A stretch of 64,000 nt of DNA from an uncultured Alphaproteobacteria bacterium (GCA_944393215.1 CALXZL010000002.1:141226-205225); one strand, 5' to 3'; positions 5,330 to 46,057 are shown, counted from the stretch's first letter. The notes: a model not told the origin generated them from the sequence alone. Made by a program: numbers and translations.

Positions 5330-5555
5330 TATATTCCTCCAAAAGTTAAACAAAAAAAGCAGACATACAAAGAACGACAACGACAAGAGAACTGATTTTT
5401 TTTGCAACAACGTCATTAAGTTGAATAGCGGAATCGACTCTTTCTAATATCGTTTTTGTGATAATATAATATTCACACATTTTTTATATTGTCAAGGATT
5501 ATTTTTTTTAAAAATTTTGTAGTAAAAATCGTTATATTCAATAGAAATAAACGTT

Positions 5556-5590
5556 GACTTATTTCCAAAGTAAATTATATTAAACATATT
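5556..5590 (+). promoter_or_regulatory. Putative sigma70-type promoter (TTGACT, 16-nt spacer, TATATT) followed by an AAGGAG RBS for the 5606 operon
   Basis: ttgacttatttccaaagtaaattatatt is read directly from the sequence 20-50 nt upstream of ATG 5606. The region diverges from the ankyrin/DUF262 operon. Confidence 0.35.
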
Positions 5591-5605
5591 AACAAAGGAG
5601 AAAAG

Positions 5606-6628
5606 ATGAACAAAATTAGAGAAAACTGGTGCAATTTCATCCTCAATGAAGGTATTATTCCGGCAAACTTAACCCGTAAATTAAAAGATTATTCCAATAC
5701 TCAAAACACCTTTTGTGTTTTGCTGGCAGACCTTCTGAAAAATCAAGAAAACGCCGATCTGAACAAATACTCTCTCCTCCCGGAAAAAGAAATTATCAAA
5801 AAATCTTTTAAAACCGATACCGAATTAATGAATTGGCTCAAATCTGTGAAGGAACTGCTGTCTGTCATCCAAACTTATGCCGACAAAGAAGCCCCCTTCA
5901 CAGAAATTGTTGATGAAGCTTGCCGAAGCTTTATCAAAGTTTGTAACTTGGTTTCAGATGATGTCAAACAACGCTATCTTGACACATCAGATAACAAATA
6001 TCTTTACTCCCCGAAGGAAGGAACAGATATCAAGCAAGAATTCAAAATCTATCTCAACGCCCAAAATTACAGCCCCAACACCATAAACAGCTATACCAGC
6101 GCCATCAATCAAATAAGCACTCTGCCAAACATTGAATATGATTTATGGGAGATAGCCGATTCTGATGAAATGACGCGATTAATTAATCTTTTAAACGCCA
6201 ATCCCAACAATTTATATGATTCGTTTAAGGAAAAAGATTCTCTGAGCCGAAACATATTTTCCAATTCTCTCAAAAGATATGCCGAATTTTTAAAAGCCAA
6301 AAAATTGAATCGTCCTTATAAAACAGAAAAAAAGCCGGAGAAAAAAATCGGAGAATATGTCCAAAACGAATTTTGCTACATTTTACAAAGCAACAAAATC
6401 TCTGAATATGAAATTCAACGCCTGATGGATATGAATTACTGCAAACAAATTTTCAAAACCAGAGGACAACAATATCCGATATTGGCAACGGAAGAACGCG
6501 CCCGAGACCGATACTATAAACAACCGCTCAAAATCAGAAACAAAATTTACTATATTTCTTCTCAATGGTATGATGACCAACTACCCTACTTAAAGACATG
6601 GCTCAAAGATCATGGTATCGTCATATAA
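5606..6628 (+). CDS. Hypothetical protein, 340 aa, with no recognisable domain. First gene of a two-gene operon with the UvrD-like helicase fusion.
   Basis: A strong RBS (AAGGAG) precedes the start. The stop codon TAA 6626-6628 lies inside the RBS of the downstream gene (ATG 6639), indicating translational coupling. Composition is Lys/Asn-rich with no P-loop. Confidence 0.6.
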   Translation: MNKIRENWCNFILNEGIIPANLTRKLKDYSNTQNTFCVLLADLLKNQENADLNKYSLLPEKEIIKKSFKTDTELMNWLKSVKELLSVIQTYADKEAPFTEIVDEACRSFIKVCNLVSDDVKQRYLDTSDNKYLYSPKEGTDIKQEFKIYLNAQNYSPNTINSYTSAINQISTLPNIEYDLWEIADSDEMTRLINLLNANPNNLYDSFKEKDSLSRNIFSNSLKRYAEFLKAKKLNRPYKTEKKPEKKIGEYVQNEFCYILQSNKISEYEIQRLMDMNYCKQIFKTRGQQYPILATEERARDRYYKQPLKIRNKIYYISSQWYDDQLPYLKTWLKDHGIVI

Positions 6629-38574: not shown

Positions 38575-39642
38575 ATGTCACGTGCGGAAGACATTTTTCA
38601 AAAACTCATTTATTTCGGAGAAGATGCCATTGATGAATTTATCATCAACCAACAAACCGAAGAGCTGTTTTTGGACTTCAAGCAAGCCGTATCTGTCGGC
38701 AAAAACTTTGTAACTCTGCATAGAGATGACCGCAAAAATCTCTCCAAAGCCATTTCCGGTTTTGGCAACTCCGAAGGCGGCGTGATAATTTGGGGTGTGG
38801 ATTGCGCCCGCGATAATGAAATCGGCGATGTTGCAAAGGCCAAGGTTAAAGTCAAAAACGTGCACCGTTTTTTAAGCTGGCTGGAAAATGCCATTTCGGG
38901 CTGTACCATTCCCAGCCATAACAAAGTCAGAAATCATATCATCAGCTGTGATAAAAACGGCGATGGCTTTATTGCCACCTATATTCCGAAATCAGAATTA
39001 GCTCCTTTAATGTCCACCACCAACGGCGCCATTTACATCCGCTCCGGCTCCAACAACGTGCCTGCACCTTATTCTGTTATTGCCGGTATGTTTGGAAGAT
39101 ATCCGCAACCCAATGTGGAATTGATTCTGGCAGACAAGCAAATCAAAGTTTTGGATAATGCCGATGAAGATTTGATTTATCCGCTGAATATGAAAAATCC
39201 GCCCAAGAAATATGTCAAAATCAGCTTTGCCATCCATGCCGAAAATGTCAGTAATGTCATTGCCAGAGAGATTTATTTAACTTGCCGCACGGTCAGCACC
39301 GGAAGTGAATATAATAAAATTCGTTTTACCAATTATAATCAAATGGACTCAATCCCCGGCATTGAAAATCAGCTCAATTTGATAACCAAACCGGAATTAA
39401 GACTTCCGCCGCGCGGCATTTTCAAGTTCTGCAACGTGGATATTATATTATCACCTTTTGCCGAAGATGATTTGGTCTTAGACGGCGTGATCGGGGCTGA
39501 TGAATGCGCGCCCAAAGACTTTGACGTGCATATTGCCAAAAACAATCTGCGTTCTTTTGTCGCCAAAGTTTTAAGAAACAGCAAAAATCCCGACAAATTG
39601 TTGAACGAATTTTTCTCGGAATTTTTAATTAATATGGAATAG
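38575..39642 (+). CDS. AlbA_2 (Schlafen-like, divergent AAA) domain protein with an unknown C-terminal domain of about 220 aa
   Basis: ELFLDFKQ plus ISGFGNSEGGVIIWGVD is the diagnostic AlbA_2/Schlafen core signature (LEFK ... AFANS-GG-IIGV). The C-terminal half has no recognisable motifs. Confidence 0.7.
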   Translation: MSRAEDIFQKLIYFGEDAIDEFIINQQTEELFLDFKQAVSVGKNFVTLHRDDRKNLSKAISGFGNSEGGVIIWGVDCARDNEIGDVAKAKVKVKNVHRFLSWLENAISGCTIPSHNKVRNHIISCDKNGDGFIATYIPKSELAPLMSTTNGAIYIRSGSNNVPAPYSVIAGMFGRYPQPNVELILADKQIKVLDNADEDLIYPLNMKNPPKKYVKISFAIHAENVSNVIAREIYLTCRTVSTGSEYNKIRFTNYNQMDSIPGIENQLNLITKPELRLPPRGIFKFCNVDIILSPFAEDDLVLDGVIGADECAPKDFDVHIAKNNLRSFVAKVLRNSKNPDKLLNEFFSEFLINME

Positions 39643-39649
39643 ATAAGAG

Positions 39650-40096
39650 ATGACGGCTATTGAAATTTTTACCGACGGAGCTTGTTCCGGCAACCCCGGA
39701 GCCGGTGGCTGGGGCGTTATTCTGCGCTATGGCGAAACCGAAAAAGAATTAAGTGGCGGAGATGCGCAAACCACCAACAACCGTATGGAGTTGACCGCGG
39801 TAATAGAGGCGCTCAAAGCCTTAAAAAGAGAGTGTGAAATCACCCTTTATACCGATAGTCGTTATGTGATGGACGGTGTCAATGAATGGATGCCTAATTG
39901 GAAGAAAAACGGCTGGAAAACCACCAACAAAAAATCCGCCGTCAAAAATTTGGAACTCTGGCAAGAACTGGATAGTTTGTTACCCAAACACAAAATCAAA
40001 TGGGTTTGGGTTAAGGGACATAACGGACATCCCGAAAACGAGCGTGTAGACAAACTCGCCCGCGACGCCGCCAAAAGCTTTTTAGAAAAAGATTAA
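39650..40096 (+). CDS. rnhA: Ribonuclease HI
   Basis: [20 protein letters not shown], ...TNNRMEL, ...YTDSRYV, ...[15 protein letters not shown] give the DEDD active site and the His of RNase H. Confidence 0.92.
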
Positions 40097-40356
40097 AACT
40101 CATAAATATAAATCAAAACCAAATTGAAAATGGTCAAGATTGCCATCAAAACAGGCTCTTCACGAACGCTGGCAATTCTCTTTTGCTCATAAGAATAAAA
40201 ATAGATAAAAAAGCTATAAAGTGTCACCCATAAAGGATAAGACAACAAATTGCAAACAACAAAGAGATTCAAGAGTGATATTGAAGCATAAGCGACAAAA
40301 GCAAACAACCCCGTTCCAATGGTTTTTATTGTCCGAATATAATCCTCTGCCTGCAT
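40093..40356 (-). CDS. Small membrane protein, 87 aa, 2 predicted TM helices
   Basis: It has hydrophobic stretches. Its stop overlaps the rnhA stop in convergent orientation. Confidence 0.4.
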
Positions 40357-40539
40357 GTTTCAACTCACCTGTTATTGTAAATATGCTTGATTATAATTAA
40401 AACAATCGCTCCAATCAAGTTTTCTCTTTGGGTTACAAAACATTTTTGACAAAATTGTCTATTTTATGCTTGCCACCCTCCTCATTTTGTGATATAAACT
40501 TAAGCAGAAAAAAATATTACTAATTAAAATCATAAGTAT

Positions 40540-40917
40540 ATGGAAAAAGAAATTATTATTAAAAGAATGAAAAATGTATTGAAAGCTATCTGGTACCATG
40601 TAAAATCATGGACAACAGCATTTTTTATGATGTTTCTTATGGTCTCCGGAGTAACTGCTCCGTGGCTATTTTTTGGAAAATGGGCCGATATTATTGCAGA
40701 GATATGGCATGAAGGAAATTTACTTTACATTCCGGATTTGATAGGACTACTTGGATATGTAGCAGGAATAATTATGTTTTCTTTCGTTGCAGTTGTTGGT
40801 GCTATTGCCATAATCTACGCAAGTGGCTATATTATATACAAATTCTACGCTTATTTCTTCAAAAAAGACCGAAATGCCCTTAGGGACATCCTTGATGAGC
40901 TTGTATATAAATTCTGA
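40540..40917 (+). CDS. Small membrane protein, 125 aa, 3 predicted TM helices
   Basis: It has hydrophobic helices and lies in the insertion-like cluster between rnhA and dsbD. Confidence 0.45.
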   Translation: MEKEIIIKRMKNVLKAIWYHVKSWTTAFFMMFLMVSGVTAPWLFFGKWADIIAEIWHEGNLLYIPDLIGLLGYVAGIIMFSFVAVVGAIAIIYASGYIIYKFYAYFFKKDRNALRDILDELVYKF

Positions 40918-40995
40918 AAATAATACCACCACCTCAAAAAACTCACCTTCCGCATGGAAGATGAGTTTTTCTTTTTTAAGTCTAAAAATCTTCAA

Positions 40996-41286
40996 TCATT
41001 TTCCCAAAAATTGATACCAATTTTTAATCGCCAAATGATACAAAAACTCCCAATTTAAAAAGCATATCAACCAAGAAAAAATAAAAATAAGATTTGTTGA
41101 TACCATAAAATATTTATCTTGAAAAAACCAATTCATAATAAAATAAAATGCAATACTCATATACAGCAACACAAACAAAAAAGAAAAAGGAACAGCCTCA
41201 CTCAAACTACAAATAACAGCCCCTCCGATAGCAAAACCACTGGCATCAAGAAAAAGAGCATTCAGAATTTTCTTTAATTTTTGCAT
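40996..41286 (-). CDS. Small membrane protein, 96 aa, immediately downstream of the PG-binding glycine-zipper gene; a putative immunity protein
   Basis: It has 3 hydrophobic helices and sits 28 bp downstream of the 41314 gene on the same strand. Confidence 0.45.
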   Translation of the reverse strand: MQKLKKILNALFLDASGFAIGGAVICSLSEAVPFSFLFVLLYMSIAFYFIMNWFFQDKYFMVSTNLIFIFSWLICFLNWEFLYHLAIKNWYQFLGK

Positions 41287-41313
41287 AGCTTATTCCTTTT
41301 TCATAATATTTAA

Positions 41314-42126
41314 TTATTTGTTTTTATCTTTCTTAGAAAAGACCTCATCCCATACTTTATCGACACCTTTTCCAACACCTTCGTCCATTAAACCTCTGAC
41401 CAGAGGAGTTCCTCCTCGAGCTCCATGCAGAGATTTAACAACTTTATGCCCCAACAGAGCTCCTGTAATGCTTTTCGCTGTTGAATCTGCATAATCCGAA
41501 CTGCCGCTAGCTGAACCAACACCATATGTTATACCTGAACCAACTGCATCAAGCAAGTTTTTTCTTGCTAACTTTTGAGCTGGTGATGAAGCTCTTGTTT
41601 TGCTAAATTTTATCGGAGATGAAATAGCACCAGCCACTTCCATTCCTCCTGTTAATATCGGCGCCTTTTTATATCCCTCTTCCAAAACACTTCTTCTATT
41701 ATCACGGTATTTTTTATATCCGCGCTCAAATGCTTCAGACATACTTTCTTTTTGCTTATTCCACTTTGGATTTAAACTTCCCAAAGCATAACCGACACCA
41801 CCGATAGCTCCTTCAGCTTCATCTGCCCATCCAAAGCTTAGTCCCTGCAAACCTCCTGTTGCTCCATATTCTCCTTTTTTCAATATCTTATTAAACATAG
41901 ATTCCGTTTCACCTTTAGGTTTCATAACGCCATCTATTTTTAAATTTTTATCTTTTTGAAAAGACCTTATTCCATCAAACATTTTTGTATCGACTATGGC
42001 ATCAATTCCCCATTCAGGTTCTTTATAATAGCCAAAATTCTTTAAATGTTTTTTGACATTGATAACATCATCAGAATCAATGTCTGCTGTTGTTTCAGAA
42101 ACTTCTTTTTTCAAATTAAATGGTTG
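41314..42126 (-). CDS. Peptidoglycan-binding domain protein with a Gly-rich (glycine-zipper-like) C-terminal region and no signal peptide; a toxin or bacteriocin-like candidate. The track ORF runs to 42234; the start at 42126 has an AGGAG RBS.
   Basis: The PG_binding_1-like region is VINVKKHLKNFGYYKEPEWGIDAIVDTKMFDGIRSFQKDKNLKIDGVMKPKGET. The C-terminal Gly/Ala/Ser-rich region includes GATGGLQGLSFGWADEAEGAIGGVGYALGSL. A minus-strand terminator hairpin lies upstream at 42160..42198. Confidence 0.6.
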   Translation of the reverse strand, partial: QPFNLKKEVSETTADIDSDDVINVKKHLKNFGYYKEPEWGIDAIVDTKMFDGIRSFQKDKNLKIDGVMKPKGETESMFNKILKKGEYGATGGLQGLSFGWADEAEGAIGGVGYALGSLNPKWNKQKESMSEAFERGYKKYRDNRRSVLEEGYKKAPILTGGMEVAGAISSPIKFSKTRASSPAQKLARKNLLDAVGSGITYGVGSASGSSDYADSTAKSITGALLGHKVVKSLHGARGGTPLVRGLMDEGVGKGVDKVWDEVFSKKDKNK

Positions 42127-42258
42127 CATAAATAAAACTCCTATTAAAATTTTTAAAACAAAAAAAAGCTGATGAAAATTCATCAGCTTTAAAACGAACA
42201 CACTTATCCCAAGTGATAATTCAATATAATACAAAAAGTCTCAAAAGTCAAGGAATTT

Positions 42259-42455
42259 TTTCCTAATCCGCAAAACCTTTAATCACTTTTGTCAGCTCGT
42301 CTTCTGTCAAAATCTCGGGCAAGACCATACCGTCCGGCACACTGCGGCTAAAGATAATATAAAACGGCAAGCCGGAGCGTCCGAACTGCCGTTAGCTGAA
42401 CCAACACCATATGTTATACCTGAACCAACTGCATCAAGCAAGTTTTTTCTTGACA
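42259..42455 (-). repeat. Chimeric duplicated fragment. It is a copy of the dsbD 3' end of about 130 bp at 42259..42390 (about 95% identical to 43352..43480), joined at a 9-bp microhomology (tccgaactg) to a 62-bp copy of an internal segment of the 41314 gene (41505..41566, 1 mismatch). Together they form a small fusion ORF remnant.
   Basis: I aligned the two pairs by eye. cctaatccgcaaaacctttaatcacttttgtcagctcgtcttc[t/g]gtcaaaatctc[g/a]ggcaag... occurs at both 42259 and 43352. ccg[t/c]tagctgaaccaacaccatatgttatacctgaaccaactgcatcaagcaagttttttcttg occurs at both 42391 and 41503. Confidence 0.8.
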
Positions 42456-42574
42456 TATTAGGAATAATATCCTAAATATAATATTATCACTTAGGATAAT
42501 TGTGTCTTAAGTGATTTTTTTGCCCTGTCTAATAAACAGGGCTTTTTTTTACTATTTAACATATTGGAGGAAAA

Positions 42575-42880
42575 ATGAATTTAATACAATATATTGCACA
42601 AGCAGATCCTGAAGAAAAAATCATTTCTAGGGAAAATAATTTCATACAAAATGGAATTAATTGGTATCGCGAATATTCAAAAATAAGTAAATTAAACGAT
42701 AACAGAATTACAGATGAAAACAAACATCAATATATGAGCTGCTTAGCTGGACGAGGAGGAAAAGCAGAAGCTATTGCAGGTTGGGGAATTGGTCTTGGCA
42801 AAGAAGCCATTGATTTAACTAAAAAAACATTAAGCCCAAATGCTCGAAAAAGGTATAATGGTGTGGTAAATATTTTTTAA
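42575..42880 (+). CDS. Small hypothetical protein, 101 aa, with a glycine-zipper motif related to the one in the 41314 protein
   Basis: LAGRGGKAEAIAGWGIGLGKEAIDL resembles GWADEAEGAIGGVGYALGSL of the PG-binding protein. A GGAGG RBS precedes the start. Confidence 0.4.
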   Translation: MNLIQYIAQADPEEKIISRENNFIQNGINWYREYSKISKLNDNRITDENKHQYMSCLAGRGGKAEAIAGWGIGLGKEAIDLTKKTLSPNARKRYNGVVNIF

Positions 42881-43036
42881 AGATAGTCAAAAAGATATAA
42901 AAAACAACTGGAAAGGTTTACAATATGGACTTGAAAATAAAGGAAAATGTATAAATTTACTTGAACAAAAGCTTCCATAATTGACTATTATGAAAATATG
43001 TGAGAATATCTAAAAACAATTATAAGGTATTCTCAC

Positions 43037-43345
43037 ATGCTACAAAAAATTAAATCATTTTTTTACTGGAGCTTTTTCTTTGCAATCTTAACATCAGCCC
43101 TTGTTTTGGGCTTATTCTTTTTTATGCCTGATGAACATACATACAACACCTATCATGGAGATTTCATATATCAAAGCATCAAAATACTCTGCGGAACCGC
43201 ATATCTGATAACTCTTTTGATGCAGTTAGGCCAAAAAACTTCAAGCAAACTGAAACAATATGAAAAAGACCAATATCTTTTAATTGGCGCATCATTACTG
43301 ATAATAGAAATTTTATTTTTATCGGCAACATTACCTGAATTTTAA
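43037..43345 (+). CDS. Small membrane protein, 102 aa
   Basis: It has three hydrophobic helices and ends 7 bp before the dsbD stop in convergent orientation. Confidence 0.4.
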   Translation: MLQKIKSFFYWSFFFAILTSALVLGLFFFMPDEHTYNTYHGDFIYQSIKILCGTAYLITLLMQLGQKTSSKLKQYEKDQYLLIGASLLIIEILFLSATLPEF

Positions 43346-43351
43346 GGTTTC

Positions 43352-46057
43352 CTAATCCGCAAAACCTTTAATCACTTTTGTCAGCTCGTCTTCGGTCAAA
43401 ATCTCAGGCAAGACCATACCGTCCGGCACACTGCGGCTGAAGATGATATAAAACGGCAGACCGGAGCGTCCGAACTGGCGCATAAACTCTAATACTTTGC
43501 GGTCATAATCAGTCCAATCCACATCAATATATTTCACCTTGTAGAACTTTGCCAACTCCTCGATTTTGCTGTTGTCAAACACCGTCACGTCATTAAATTT
43601 ACAGGTCAGGCACCAATCTGCCCCCACCCGCACGATGACGATATTTCCTTCCTTCAAATAAGCATCAATCTGCGCGCGGTCAATTTTCACTTCTTTGGTT
43701 AGAGCCACTTCTGCCATATGGATTTTGAAGGATTTGTCGGCTTGATACAAGCACCCAATTGTCACGATAAGCAACAACACACTAATCACACGACGTACCA
43801 GCTTTTTGGCACTCTGGCGCACGGCTAAATCTTCATTTTGATTTTCGATTGAATCAAAAATCAAGCGCCGCATATAAAACATCAGGAGGAAGAAGGCAAG
43901 CCCTGCCCCCACCCAAAGAACCGTATGCCAATCGGTCTGCGCTTGCAAAATCGAGAGTAACCACACAATGGTTAGAATAAGCATCAAAATCATAAAGGCG
44001 CTGAGTTTTTGCATCCACGGACCGGGTTTGGGCATCAATTCTCCGAGATTCGGATAAGTTGCCAAAAGCAGATACGGCATTGCCAAACCCAAACCGACCA
44101 CTGGCAATAAGATGATGATATCCGTCATCGTGCCGGCAAGCGCAAAACCAAGTGTTGTACCAAGATAAGGCGCCGTACAAGGTGTGGCGACCAAAACAAT
44201 AAACAGCCCTGCCAAAATATTGATAAAATTATCCTGCCGCGGATCTTTATTTTTAAGCCTTTTCAAAATAAATTCCGGTGTTTTGATGTTAATCAGTCCC
44301 AAAATCTGAGCCGTAAAAAACACCATCACAATCGCCATCACCACCAAGAAATATGGGTTTTGGAATTGCATCCCCCAGCCGATTGCCACATCAACGGCTT
44401 TCAGCGCACACAACACGGCGGTTAAAATAACAAACGCCAGCATAATACCCAAAGCCGTATAAGCAAAGCTTTTGCGAATGGCTTTTTCTTCCAACGCCCC
44501 ATATCGGGTTAAGGTTAAAAATTTCAAAGACAACACCGGAAAAACGCACGGCATTAAGTTAAGAATAAATCCGCCGGCAAAAGCCATAATAATCAGCATC
44601 AGGGAAAGCGTTGGTTTATTGGCATCAAAAATGGAAGAAGCTTCGGGAACAATCTGAGTCCGTAGCATATCAAAAGAATTAATCCCGACTGTCAAACTAA
44701 ATTCTTTGCCAATAATGTTTTCTTCCGGATTCCGAACCTTCAAACGTGCAATAATCTCATCATCATTAAGCGTAATTTTCGGACGATAGAAAAGGATATT
44801 GTCTTTAGAATCAACAAATATCTTAACCTTTTCGGGATTTTTCTCGGTGTGAATAACAATTCGCAGTGTTTGAGCTCCGTTGGCATCAGTATCGACCACT
44901 GCTTTTTCAACATGTAAATTTTCATTATAAGCTTTGGGCAAATTATTATATGTGCGTTCAATAAAACTGCTGAAACCTGATCGCAGATAATCATCTCCGA
45001 CATCCAAACTCAACATCGGCTCAAATTCCACCGGATGACACTGATTTTGACCACAGATTGTGGCTTTAACATGAGCTTTGAGTTTCATCGGCTTGGTTTT
45101 ATCTTGCAAAGTAACTGCAACCGGCAAAGCAAAATTACCGACATAACCGAGAATATTATCATCCGTATTATCCACCACGCGTATGGGCATCGGCCACAAA
45201 ACTTGAGCATCCTTCACATTTTCCGAACCGGCAAAATCAAACGACGGCAACAAAATATTTTTTTCAGGACTCCACAAAAGCATATAACCGTCTTTTAATC
45301 TAAAATCCAAAACGGTTTGAATATTTTCGGAATTTATTGAAATTTCATTACTAAGCAGACGAGCATCACCATAAGCACTTTTTTGCCAACCGCCGATTCC
45401 CTTTTTGCCGGTAAAAGGATTATCATACACAATTCCGTAGAAGAAAAGCTTACTCCACTCTAACTCCTGTACCAAAGCCGAAAGGCGGAAAAATCCTTCC
45501 AAATCCTCACGTTCTTTTTGCATTTTCTTTTTATAATAAAGTTCCAGAGCTTCAAAATCGCGTGGATTATTACCATAACTCAAAACCTTCTTAAAATCTT
45601 GAATAATCAAAGGCTGATTTGATCCGGTATCAACATATTCCCAAGTTTTAGGCAAATCATAATCTTCTTCATCCACTTGCAAAGGCGGAGGAGCCGGAAC
45701 GAGCAATTTTTCTTTAATTTCATTATATTTATTTTTAAGAAAGCGATAAAACTTCACCCTGGCACGAATATCATCTGCCTTTTCTTCCTGCTCAATATCT
45801 GTTAAATCAGGATATTTTTCTCGCACCTGAGGTAAAATATCGCCATCAATTTTATCTCCGGGAAAATTTTTTTCAAAAAAATAATAATTACCGAGAATAT
45901 TACCTAATTGTTGATAAATATTAACCTCTTTATCGGCATTAACCTCTTCTTCCTCGGGCAAAAAGTCATAAACAACAGGAGATACGGTTTCTTGAGCATA
46001 AGAAACCGAAGTCATAAAAAAGCCAAAGACATAAAAGAATAATATAAATTTATTCAT
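43352..46057 (-). CDS. dsbD: Thiol:disulfide interchange protein DsbD, long form at 901 aa: periplasmic N-terminal domains, a TM core, and a C-terminal thioredoxin domain
   Basis: It has a signal peptide, a central 8-TM core with conserved Cys (NLMPCVFPVLSL; PCTAPYL), and a C-terminal thioredoxin fold with WCLTCK. Confidence 0.85.
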   Translation of the reverse strand: MNKFILFFYVFGFFMTSVSYAQETVSPVVYDFLPEEEEVNADKEVNIYQQLGNILGNYYFFEKNFPGDKIDGDILPQVREKYPDLTDIEQEEKADDIRARVKFYRFLKNKYNEIKEKLLVPAPPPLQVDEEDYDLPKTWEYVDTGSNQPLIIQDFKKVLSYGNNPRDFEALELYYKKKMQKEREDLEGFFRLSALVQELEWSKLFFYGIVYDNPFTGKKGIGGWQKSAYGDARLLSNEISINSENIQTVLDFRLKDGYMLLWSPEKNILLPSFDFAGSENVKDAQVLWPMPIRVVDNTDDNILGYVGNFALPVAVTLQDKTKPMKLKAHVKATICGQNQCHPVEFEPMLSLDVGDDYLRSGFSSFIERTYNNLPKAYNENLHVEKAVVDTDANGAQTLRIVIHTEKNPEKVKIFVDSKDNILFYRPKITLNDDEIIARLKVRNPEENIIGKEFSLTVGINSFDMLRTQIVPEASSIFDANKPTLSLMLIIMAFAGGFILNLMPCVFPVLSLKFLTLTRYGALEEKAIRKSFAYTALGIMLAFVILTAVLCALKAVDVAIGWGMQFQNPYFLVVMAIVMVFFTAQILGLINIKTPEFILKRLKNKDPRQDNFINILAGLFIVLVATPCTAPYLGTTLGFALAGTMTDIIILLPVVGLGLAMPYLLLATYPNLGELMPKPGPWMQKLSAFMILMLILTIVWLLSILQAQTDWHTVLWVGAGLAFFLLMFYMRRLIFDSIENQNEDLAVRQSAKKLVRRVISVLLLIVTIGCLYQADKSFKIHMAEVALTKEVKIDRAQIDAYLKEGNIVIVRVGADWCLTCKFNDVTVFDNSKIEELAKFYKVKYIDVDWTDYDRKVLEFMRQFGRSGLPFYIIFSRSVPDGMVLPEILTEDELTKVIKGFAD

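Follow-up and report, generated by a model that had tools for sequence, protein, structure and literature searches.

The rnhA-dsbD interval and its predicted toxin gene

We analyzed a stretch of 64,000 nucleotides (nt) of DNA (hereafter the window) from an uncultured gut alphaproteobacterium (GCA_944393215.1), whose relatives are metagenome-assembled genomes (MAGs) such as UMGS241, UMGS1426, HGM16780, and Candidatus Scatocola. The subject is the interval 40097-43351, which lies between rnhA and a dsbD-like gene and carries a gene for a predicted toxin of 271 amino acids (aa), its putative immunity gene, and further small open reading frames (ORFs). The gene order is ORF87(-), ORF125(+), ORF96(-), the 271-aa gene(-), ORF101(+), and ORF102(+), with the signs denoting the strands. 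The left flank, rnhA (39650..40096, plus strand), was identified by its domain (PF00075, E=1e-52) and showed 97% amino-acid identity in L004, the closest relative. The right flank, the DsbD-like gene (43352..46057, minus strand), was assigned by a domain scan and by comparison of repeats and strains. GC content was about 29-39% in the interval and about 40-46% in the flanks. The rest of the window is ordinary core genome, including rpoD, dnaG, greA, gyrA, ssb, and uvrA, and no secretion or phage genes were found in it. A preliminary description of this DNA had stated that the cluster overlaps the stop codons of both core genes. This was true of rnhA, whose stop codon is overlapped by that of ORF87 (40093-40096), but not of dsbD, as ORF102 ends 6 nt before the dsbD stop.

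The predicted toxin gene occupies 41314..42129 on the minus strand, and its product is identical to P0001. Its ATG start lies at 42129 and not at 42126, and the protein is thus 271 aa long instead of the 270 aa given before. The product consists of an N-domain of about 88 aa with PG_binding_1 (about 41866-42129, minus strand), delimited by alignment to the other proteins sharing it, and a Gly/Ser/Ala-rich, helical C-terminal domain of about 185 aa (41317 to about 41874, minus strand), delimited by its profile. Residues 232-271 form a hypervariable tail (41317-41436, minus strand) in the comparison with L004. The peptidoglycan-binding domain of the preliminary description was recovered as Pfam PG_binding_1 (PF01471) at aa 18-68, with 34.7 bits against a cut-off of 23. 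The lack of a signal peptide was also borne out, as the N-terminus is hydrophilic, transmembrane (TM) prediction found no segment in it, and homologues in 30 loci begin at the same Met with no conserved extension upstream. An upstream TTG at 42234 would allow a longer reading frame, with 35 additional residues that are hydrophobic. We regard the absence of a signal peptide as real, because this extension covers the promoter, the terminator, and the Shine-Dalgarno (SD) sequence of the leader described below, and because the homologues lack it.

A glycine zipper had been taken as a toxin hallmark of this protein. The pattern [GAS]xxxGxxx[GAS] had 4 occurrences, where composition alone would give 3.4 (p=0.45); the C-terminal domain is 16% glycine, and the count is as that content predicts. 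Since it is not above expectation, the motif is no evidence for a toxin. In scans against Pfam and NCBIfam, none of the known trafficking domains (PAAR, Rhs, LXG, VENN/CdiA, MuF) was found in the 271-aa protein, and no colicin family turned up in them, a search that the preliminary description had proposed. Pfam likewise gave no peptidoglycan-hydrolase domain and no match to Phage_Mu_F (PF04233) in the 271-aa protein.

Polymorphic C-termini, partner genes, and strain comparison

Relatives of the N-domain were searched for in 5.8 billion proteins, and 31 genome loci were then examined. The search found close full-length relatives together with proteins that are alike only over the first ~88 aa and then fully divergent. 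The N-domain (consensus MxDxLKLKKEVSETTADI...GYYxEPEWG...MFDGIRxFQ...VDGVMKPxGETE) was 56-68% identical across proteins of the Gly-rich, serum-amyloid-A (SAA), Pesticin, Tlde1-like, L011, and ORF101 types. Behind this one N-domain, the 31 loci held at least six types of C-terminus, namely the Gly-rich type of the 271-aa protein and at least five others. Among the siblings were proteins with an SAA domain (PF00277, 62 bits), with the muramidase domain Pesticin (PF16754), and with an L,D-transpeptidase domain resembling Tlde1, which scored under the cut-off of PF10908 and has the motif HGG...GSAGC; two other types, at least, were also present. Both Pesticin and Tlde1 are domains of antibacterial effectors acting in the periplasm (PMC9927483, PMC9638812), and SAA/Lipocone is an envelope-acting antibacterial toxin domain (PMC12419801). 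The siblings thus carry known antibacterial domains, while the C-terminal domain of the 271-aa protein itself has no characterized relative. The family proteins are short (200-300 aa), and several genomes possess two to three family genes, in unrelated housekeeping contexts. No description of this N-domain family was found in the literature searched, and the toxin family is apparently undescribed.

The gene following that of the 271-aa protein on the same strand is ORF96 (40996..41286, minus strand), which codes for a 96-aa protein with three TM segments; both its position and the TM prediction agree with the preliminary description. We infer that ORF96 is the cognate immunity protein, from the TM prediction and from comparison with L004 and L043. 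Partners of Gly-rich-type proteins are about 100 aa long with 3 TM, and form one weak family by alignment in which ORF96 is included. Partners of the SAA type (112-115 aa, 3 TM) and of the Tlde1-like type (121-131 aa, 3 TM) each form a family, and the partner of the Pesticin type is a 135-aa signal-peptide protein encoded on the opposite strand. The partner therefore changes with the C-terminal type, as expected of immunity proteins; an export factor should track the shared N-domain. The recurrent neighbours C1, C2, C3, and C7 were considered as a secretion apparatus, and were identified as mutS, rplM, rpsI, and an autotransporter gene.

When the rnhA-dsbD interval was compared among relatives, as had been proposed, its contents differed among the three strains L004, L043, and L046, and the toxin gene was absent from the latter two. 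The interval of L004 reads rnhA, a 109-aa partner, a 266-aa toxin, and dsbD. From 41650 to 42250, a region covering the leader, the N-domain, and the first half of the C-terminal domain, 599 of 600 nt were identical to L004, whereas the core flanks reached 89% (rnhA side) and 73.5% (dsbD). Identity then falls from 41650 to 41450, is at background between 41450 and 41100, and is back to 94% at 41000-41099. In amino acids, the two toxins were identical at 165/165 positions in aa 1-165, at 53/66 in aa 166-231, and at 9/40 in aa 232-271. ORF96 was 40% identical to the 109-aa partner, with 25 of the last 27 aa identical and the first ~70 aa unrelated. The cassette replaced between the two strains is thus the toxin tail together with TM1-2 of the partner; the stretch 41100-41450, with the tail and the 5' part of the immunity gene, was unalignable.

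The interval of L043 reads rnhA, ORF87, an ORF125 homologue, ORF96, and dsbD, with no toxin gene, and we read this strain as an immunity-only genotype. ORF96 differed from its L043 counterpart (5410-5700) at 3 of 291 nt (99% identity), against about 89% identity in the surrounding DNA. This near-identity suggests a recent transfer or sweep of the putative immunity gene. Contigs carrying the exact sequence numbered 17 for ORF96, 37 for ORF102, 40 for ORF87, and 4 for the toxin, so that by this count all three are more widespread than the toxin. In L046, the ORF125 homologue is alone in the interval.

The C-terminal domain is conserved, with 372 relatives found by a profile search of 1.84 billion representatives, and its conserved motifs are QGLSxGxxDExxG, RGYxxxRDxxR, and PxxTxxxExxGA. 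It had no match in Pfam, none in PDB sequences searched with its profile, and none by tblastn in 50,697 GenBank phage records. In close relatives, the domain lies at the C-terminus behind varied N-termini, which included PG_binding_1 in 14, Phage_Mu_F in 3, and P22_gp7 in 1 of 78 proteins; Phage_Mu_F is the hallmark of the phage-borne MuF polymorphic toxins (PMC5576092). More remote relatives, 500-1400 aa long, are phage proteins (phrog_5880) that have the domain close to their N-terminus, and some of them are fusions with lysozyme or glucosaminidase domains. On one viral contig, the phrog_5880 gene is preceded by an ejection-protein-like gene and followed by tail-fibre genes. A first AlphaFold model, made with 17 sequences, was unusable (predicted local distance difference test score, pLDDT, 43), and a second gave a confident helical bundle at toxin aa ~80-170. 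This model had no meaningful structural neighbour in PDB, and its best matches in BFVD were weak matches to phage virion proteins. The C-terminal domain is a candidate for a new membrane-active toxin domain that would have ancestry in common with phage DNA-ejection proteins and MuF toxins.

Several further proteins with the N-domain were seen outside the gut loci. In a marine alphaproteobacterial MAG (L023, 1495-7953), the genes of a tail protein, a terminase large subunit, and an endolysin-like protein are immediately followed by that of a protein with the N-domain, a coiled coil, and a Gly-rich hydrophobic stretch; in this relative, the N-domain belongs to a phage module. T7-like structural modules also encode proteins of 737-797 aa with the N-domain. 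Distant N-domain proteins of 125-165 aa that end in short Cys-rich tails were found in Magnetospirillum (L025-L029) and in L020, L024, and L026, followed by radical-SAM genes in L028 and L029 and adjacent to GNAT acetyltransferase genes in L025 and L027. The N-domain may serve in them as the leader or carrier of a modified peptide. One 303-aa relative (P0014) is labelled 'MAG: peptidoglycan-binding protein [Lactobacillus sp.]', probably by a binning error, because all other relatives are alphaproteobacterial.

Leaders, the second module, and the recombination scar

The same element of ~130 nt precedes every family gene, including both modules of the window, the loci L004-L017, and the independently retrieved L035. 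The toxin leader (42130..42265, minus strand) was defined by an alignment of 13 leaders, folds, a promoter/terminator scan, and an nhmmer profile. It carries a sigma-70 promoter with the -35 element TTGACT (42251-42246), a 17-nt spacer, and the -10 element TATATT (42228-42223); promoters of the family are often preceded by TAGGAATAAAATCC. The promoter is followed by a box, TCACTTGGGATAAGTGTGT (42216-42198), which makes a small 5' hairpin. The box of the family, aTCACTTrGGATAAGTGTgT, lies at about +1 and likewise folds into a small hairpin. Next comes a strong intrinsic terminator (42190-42165), whose stem shows compensatory changes from locus to locus, and on its 3' side lie TTTTAAA, the SD sequence, and the ATG. 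The second copy in the window, the ORF101 leader (42437..42574, plus strand), was delimited by the leader alignment, the nhmmer profile, folds, and the promoter/terminator scan. In this copy, pairing of the box with a complementary stretch downstream gives an additional terminator-like hairpin (42486-42515), and a second terminator (42522-42542) lies beyond it. The copies having such a second terminator-like hairpin built from the box include those of ORF101, L010, L017, and L035. The two window leaders, in divergent orientation, make up an inverted repeat, I1.

When 839 kb were searched with the leader profile, it matched only ahead of family genes and in three T7-like viral contigs (L049, L050, and L052), where a similar element stands ahead of a 68-aa gene and of the portal gene from an operon also encoding an N-domain protein. 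Rfam had no family for the leader, a GcvB-like match and others being below threshold. Because in both modules the terminator sits between the promoter and the ribosome-binding site, reaching the gene requires terminator read-through, and we infer that this would occur by antitermination, perhaps phage-derived. A 164-aa ORF upstream of the L049 phage leader was considered as the antiterminator, and showed no recognizable antiterminator features.

The second leader precedes ORF101 (42575..42980, plus strand), a copy, with a frameshift, of a toxin-like gene that stands alone and codes for 134 aa; the window copy reads as 101 aa with a stop at 42880. The preliminary description had taken 42575..42880 for an orphan toxin module with a related glycine zipper. 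There is indeed an extra toxin-like module, but it is unrelated to the C-terminus of the 271-aa protein and represents a separate family of 134 aa with a frameshift in this copy. The homologues P0186-P0199 are stand-alone and 134 aa long, and in L015 the ORF101-type domain is the C-terminus of a full-length family toxin (46% identity). DNA alignment to the intact L065 allele located the +1 frameshift at 42872-42877, where T6 stands instead of T5; it leaves ORF101 at 101 aa, and the NNWKG...C region conserved in intact alleles is lost. The 101-aa form was also present in L002 and L003, which are contigs of two other samples. Comparison of ORF101 with SAA-type C-terminal domains by hhalign gave a probability of 36% and E=3.7e-4, and ORF101 had no SAA match in Pfam. 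The SAA homologues among prok-SAA/Lipocone toxins are marked by a conserved motif of the sNxxGR type.

ORF102 (43037..43345, plus strand) codes for a 102-aa protein with 2-3 TM, the putative immunity partner of the ORF101 family by its TM prediction and its L035 homologue. L035 possesses an intact ORF101 homologue, then a 101-aa membrane protein 34% identical to ORF102 over the full length (E=2e-17), and then a second paralogue. The intact ORF101/ORF102-type pair of L065 also adjoins dsbD.

A recombination scar (42259..42452, minus strand), situated between the two modules, was delimited by two repeats, a base-by-base analysis of the junction, and tblastn. The first repeat, D1 (42259-42391), is a 133-nt copy of the dsbD 3' end (43348-43480) with 95% identity. 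The second, D2 (42380-42452), is a 73-nt copy of toxin codons ~185-211 (41495-41567) with 99% identity. D1 and D2 overlap in a 12-nt microhomology, TCCGAACTGCCG, and the scar creates a spurious 49-aa ORF at 42307-42456. The same scar was found in independent assemblies from the two further samples, L002 and L003. We interpret it as the record of a microhomology-mediated duplication or insertion at a repeatedly remodelled site. Nucleotide identity of dsbD, apart from the value for L004 given above, was 81% to L043 and about 66% to L046, against 81-89% for the genes on the rnhA side. The last 133 nt of dsbD, the part duplicated inside the interval, are far better conserved than the rest of the gene. 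The dsbD-like gene is thus exceptionally variable from strain to strain, and is a mosaic beside the proposed hotspot.

The four small ORFs other than ORF96 that had been pointed out were all found to be conserved, ORF101 and ORF102 as a pair, ORF125 by its homologues, and ORF87 by its codon changes. ORF125 (40540..40917, plus strand), a 125-aa protein with 3 TM, is a conserved resident of the interval with homologues at 50-92% identity. It is absent from L004 and present without a toxin in L043 and L046. Because it is in the interval even where the toxin is absent, ORF125 may not belong to the toxin system; it may be an old resident without a tie to toxins, and whether it is an orphan immunity gene or unrelated is uncertain. 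ORF87 (40093..40356, minus strand) codes for an 87-aa protein with 2 TM, predicted from its sequence, to which no role is assigned. It is absent from L004 and L046. We consider it a real gene, because synonymous codon changes exceeded non-synonymous ones against L043 (15 versus 6). Nothing in Pfam, NCBIfam, or PHROGs matched ORF87, ORF96, ORF101, ORF102, or ORF125, and phmmer found no paralogues of ORF87, ORF125, or ORF102 across the collected loci.

Two other regions of the window were noted. A 355-aa Schlafen/AlbA_2 (PF04326) protein is encoded at 38575-39642 between ispH and rnhA, and is syntenic in L004, L043, and L046. At ~25950-28700 (L041 16587-19643) lies a cluster without relation to the interval, with genes for a RimB-like protein, an ATP-grasp enzyme, and a 7TM membrane protein of transglutaminase-like type (PF14400/PF14402).

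Interpretation and comparison with known systems

We consider it probable that the rnhA-dsbD interval is a recombination hotspot with two polymorphic toxin/immunity modules for competition among related gut Alphaproteobacteria. Three features of polymorphic systems were found together: a shared N-terminus with unrelated C-termini, an adjacent partner that co-varies with them, and orphan cassettes with recombination. The orphan or diversified cassettes are the ORF101/ORF102 module, the scar, the immunity-only L043, and the tandem immunity paralogues of L035. The preliminary description had proposed a toxin, a downstream immunity gene, and an extra module between core genes, and this outline was supported by the polymorphic C-termini, the type-specific partners, the joint replacement of tail and immunity segment, the immunity-only strain, and the strain-variable interval.

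In the mechanism we propose, the N-domain would anchor the toxin to peptidoglycan once it is in the target cell's periplasm, and may have a further part in loading or trafficking. The C-terminal domain would attack the cytoplasmic membrane from within the periplasm, either forming pores or depolarizing it; we suppose membrane attack because the partner is membrane-embedded, the specificity would lie at the tail and TM1-2, the siblings target the envelope, and the relatives include ejection proteins. ORF96 would neutralize the toxin within the membrane, and specificity would be set by the toxin's last ~40 aa together with TM1-2 of ORF96. In the second module, the ORF101 toxin would be inactivated by the homopolymer frameshift, leaving its membrane partner ORF102 intact. 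Both modules would be silent until an antitermination signal arrives, and they would spread among strains by homologous and microhomology-mediated recombination.

Some observations weigh against this interpretation. Neither the surroundings of the 31 loci nor the window contained a secretion apparatus; Hcp, VgrG, PAAR, and Tss genes were absent from the flanks of these loci and from the window, and the gene neighbourhoods of the family loci gave no support for linkage to a type VI (T6SS) or type IV (T4SS) secretion system. The terminator ahead of the toxin gene could mean rare or no expression. ORF125 and ORF87 showed no link to any toxin.

Release by a phage-like particle or coupled to lysis would be conceivable, given that both domains and the leader have affinities to phages. 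A bolder proposal, which we hold to be possible but unlikely, is that these proteins are a new class of signal-less polymorphic toxins with podovirus-derived trafficking and regulation. The N-domain may then be a loading or trafficking module, and the Gly-rich tip a re-used membrane-penetrating module of ejection proteins. All copies in a genome may form a regulon held by the promoter-proximal terminator and freed by a phage-type (Q-like or RNA-binding) antiterminator, and release or delivery of the toxin may be tied to a lysis programme or a phage-like particle, in place of a classical secretion system.

The same affinities would also fit decaying or domesticated phage genes without a role in competition, namely a virion/ejection or endolysin-like remnant with holin/spanin remnants. 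The virion proteins of phrog_5880 have a homologue of the C-terminal domain as their N-terminal part, the best BFVD matches of its model, though weak, are phage virion proteins, the N-domain occurs in T7-like structural proteins and beside a terminase and an endolysin-like gene in L023, and the leader resembles that of a phage portal operon. However, no other phage gene was found in the window or in the gut loci, which are flanked by housekeeping genes. The ORFs are uninterrupted and many genomes conserve them, the siblings carry bona fide antibacterial toxin domains, the partner families vary with the C-terminal type, and immunity-only strains occur with strong conservation. We thus think it improbable that the interval holds phage remnants.

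Somewhat less probable still is an export pair of holin type (type 10-like), in which ORF96, as a holin, would let the peptidoglycan-binding protein into the periplasm of the producer for wall remodelling or release. The 271-aa protein has a domain for a periplasmic ligand despite lacking a signal peptide, and an adjacent protein of ~100 aa with 3 TM has the size and topology of a class I holin. Nevertheless, the partner changes with the C-terminal domain and not with the N-domain, and the Pesticin partner is a soluble protein with a signal peptide from the opposite strand. ORF96 is kept without the cargo gene in L043, lacks the charged C-terminal tail typical of holins, and had no PHROG or Pfam holin match. 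A housekeeping cell-wall protein with a missed signal peptide, amid small ORFs that are spurious products of AT-rich DNA, is very improbable: the TTG extension is hydrophobic and AT-rich DNA readily gives hydrophobic ORFs, but this extension overlaps conserved leader elements and is absent from homologues with the same Met, the gene is absent from closely related strains, and the small ORFs are conserved, under purifying selection, or in conserved pairs. Each of these alternatives is contradicted by the co-variation of partners, the immunity-only strain, and the lack of phage genes.

If the toxin/immunity interpretation is true, a family of compact antibacterial toxins is added to the poorly known uncultured Alphaproteobacteria of human and animal guts. 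The pair of strains would provide a natural experiment for toxin/immunity specificity, with toxins identical to residue 165 and swapped tails and immunity TM1-2. The conserved leader makes regulation directly testable, and could point to the export programme.

Among known systems, the genes do not make up a phage lysis cassette of endolysin and holin, as the 271-aa protein has no hydrolase domain, ORF96, ORF87, and ORF125 had no PHROG match, and the window holds no phage genes. The ejection or internal virion proteins of podoviruses (P22 gp7/gp20/gp16-like; phrog_5880) have an N-terminal ~190 aa homologous to the toxin C-terminal domain and share with it the motifs QGxSxGxxDExxG, RGYxxxRDxxR, and PxxTxxxExxG. 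They are, however, 500-1400 aa long and encoded in virion modules without an immunity partner, whereas the 271-aa protein has the domain at its C-terminus and a membrane protein as its partner.

Bacteriocins of the colicin/pesticin type are likewise modular and without a signal peptide, and have an integral-membrane immunity protein where the toxin is presumed to be membrane-active. A Pesticin domain occurs in the siblings, and expression is apparently tightly controlled. Unlike colicins, the proteins described here lack domains for receptor binding or translocation and match no colicin domain of Pfam, no lysis gene was recognized, the genes lie in chromosomal islets, and the N-domain is far too small for colicin-style import across the outer membrane. 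T6SS cargo pairs (Tlde1/Tldi1 and the Pesticin-like VgrG3/TsiV3; PMC9638812, PMC9927483) also consist of small signal-less, envelope-acting effectors with membrane or periplasmic immunity proteins, and Tlde1-like and Pesticin domains are present in the siblings; the difference is the lack of Hcp, VgrG, PAAR, and Tss genes noted above. With the MuF toxins of temperate phages (Jamet et al. 2017, PMC5576092), the proteins have in common the lack of a signal peptide and the phage affinities of the C-terminal domain and the leader, and in 3 of the 78 relatives the same Gly-rich domain is fused to MuF, but the 271-aa protein is without MuF and is not in a prophage.

The closest likeness is to polymorphic toxin systems (2012, PMC3482391; prok-SAA/Lipocone tips, PMC12419801). 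The present proteins differ from them in being very short, in having as N-terminus only the ~88-aa domain containing PG_binding_1, without a signal peptide or a recognized trafficking domain, in the lack of nearby secretion genes, and in the conserved promoter-terminator leader. In common are a constant N-terminus with interchangeable C-terminal toxin domains, a downstream immunity gene varying with the tip, orphan modules, immunity-only strains, and recombination at junctions, and the siblings here have SAA-type, Pesticin, and Tlde1-like tips. We concluded that the system is a variant of polymorphic toxin systems, instead of a separate category.

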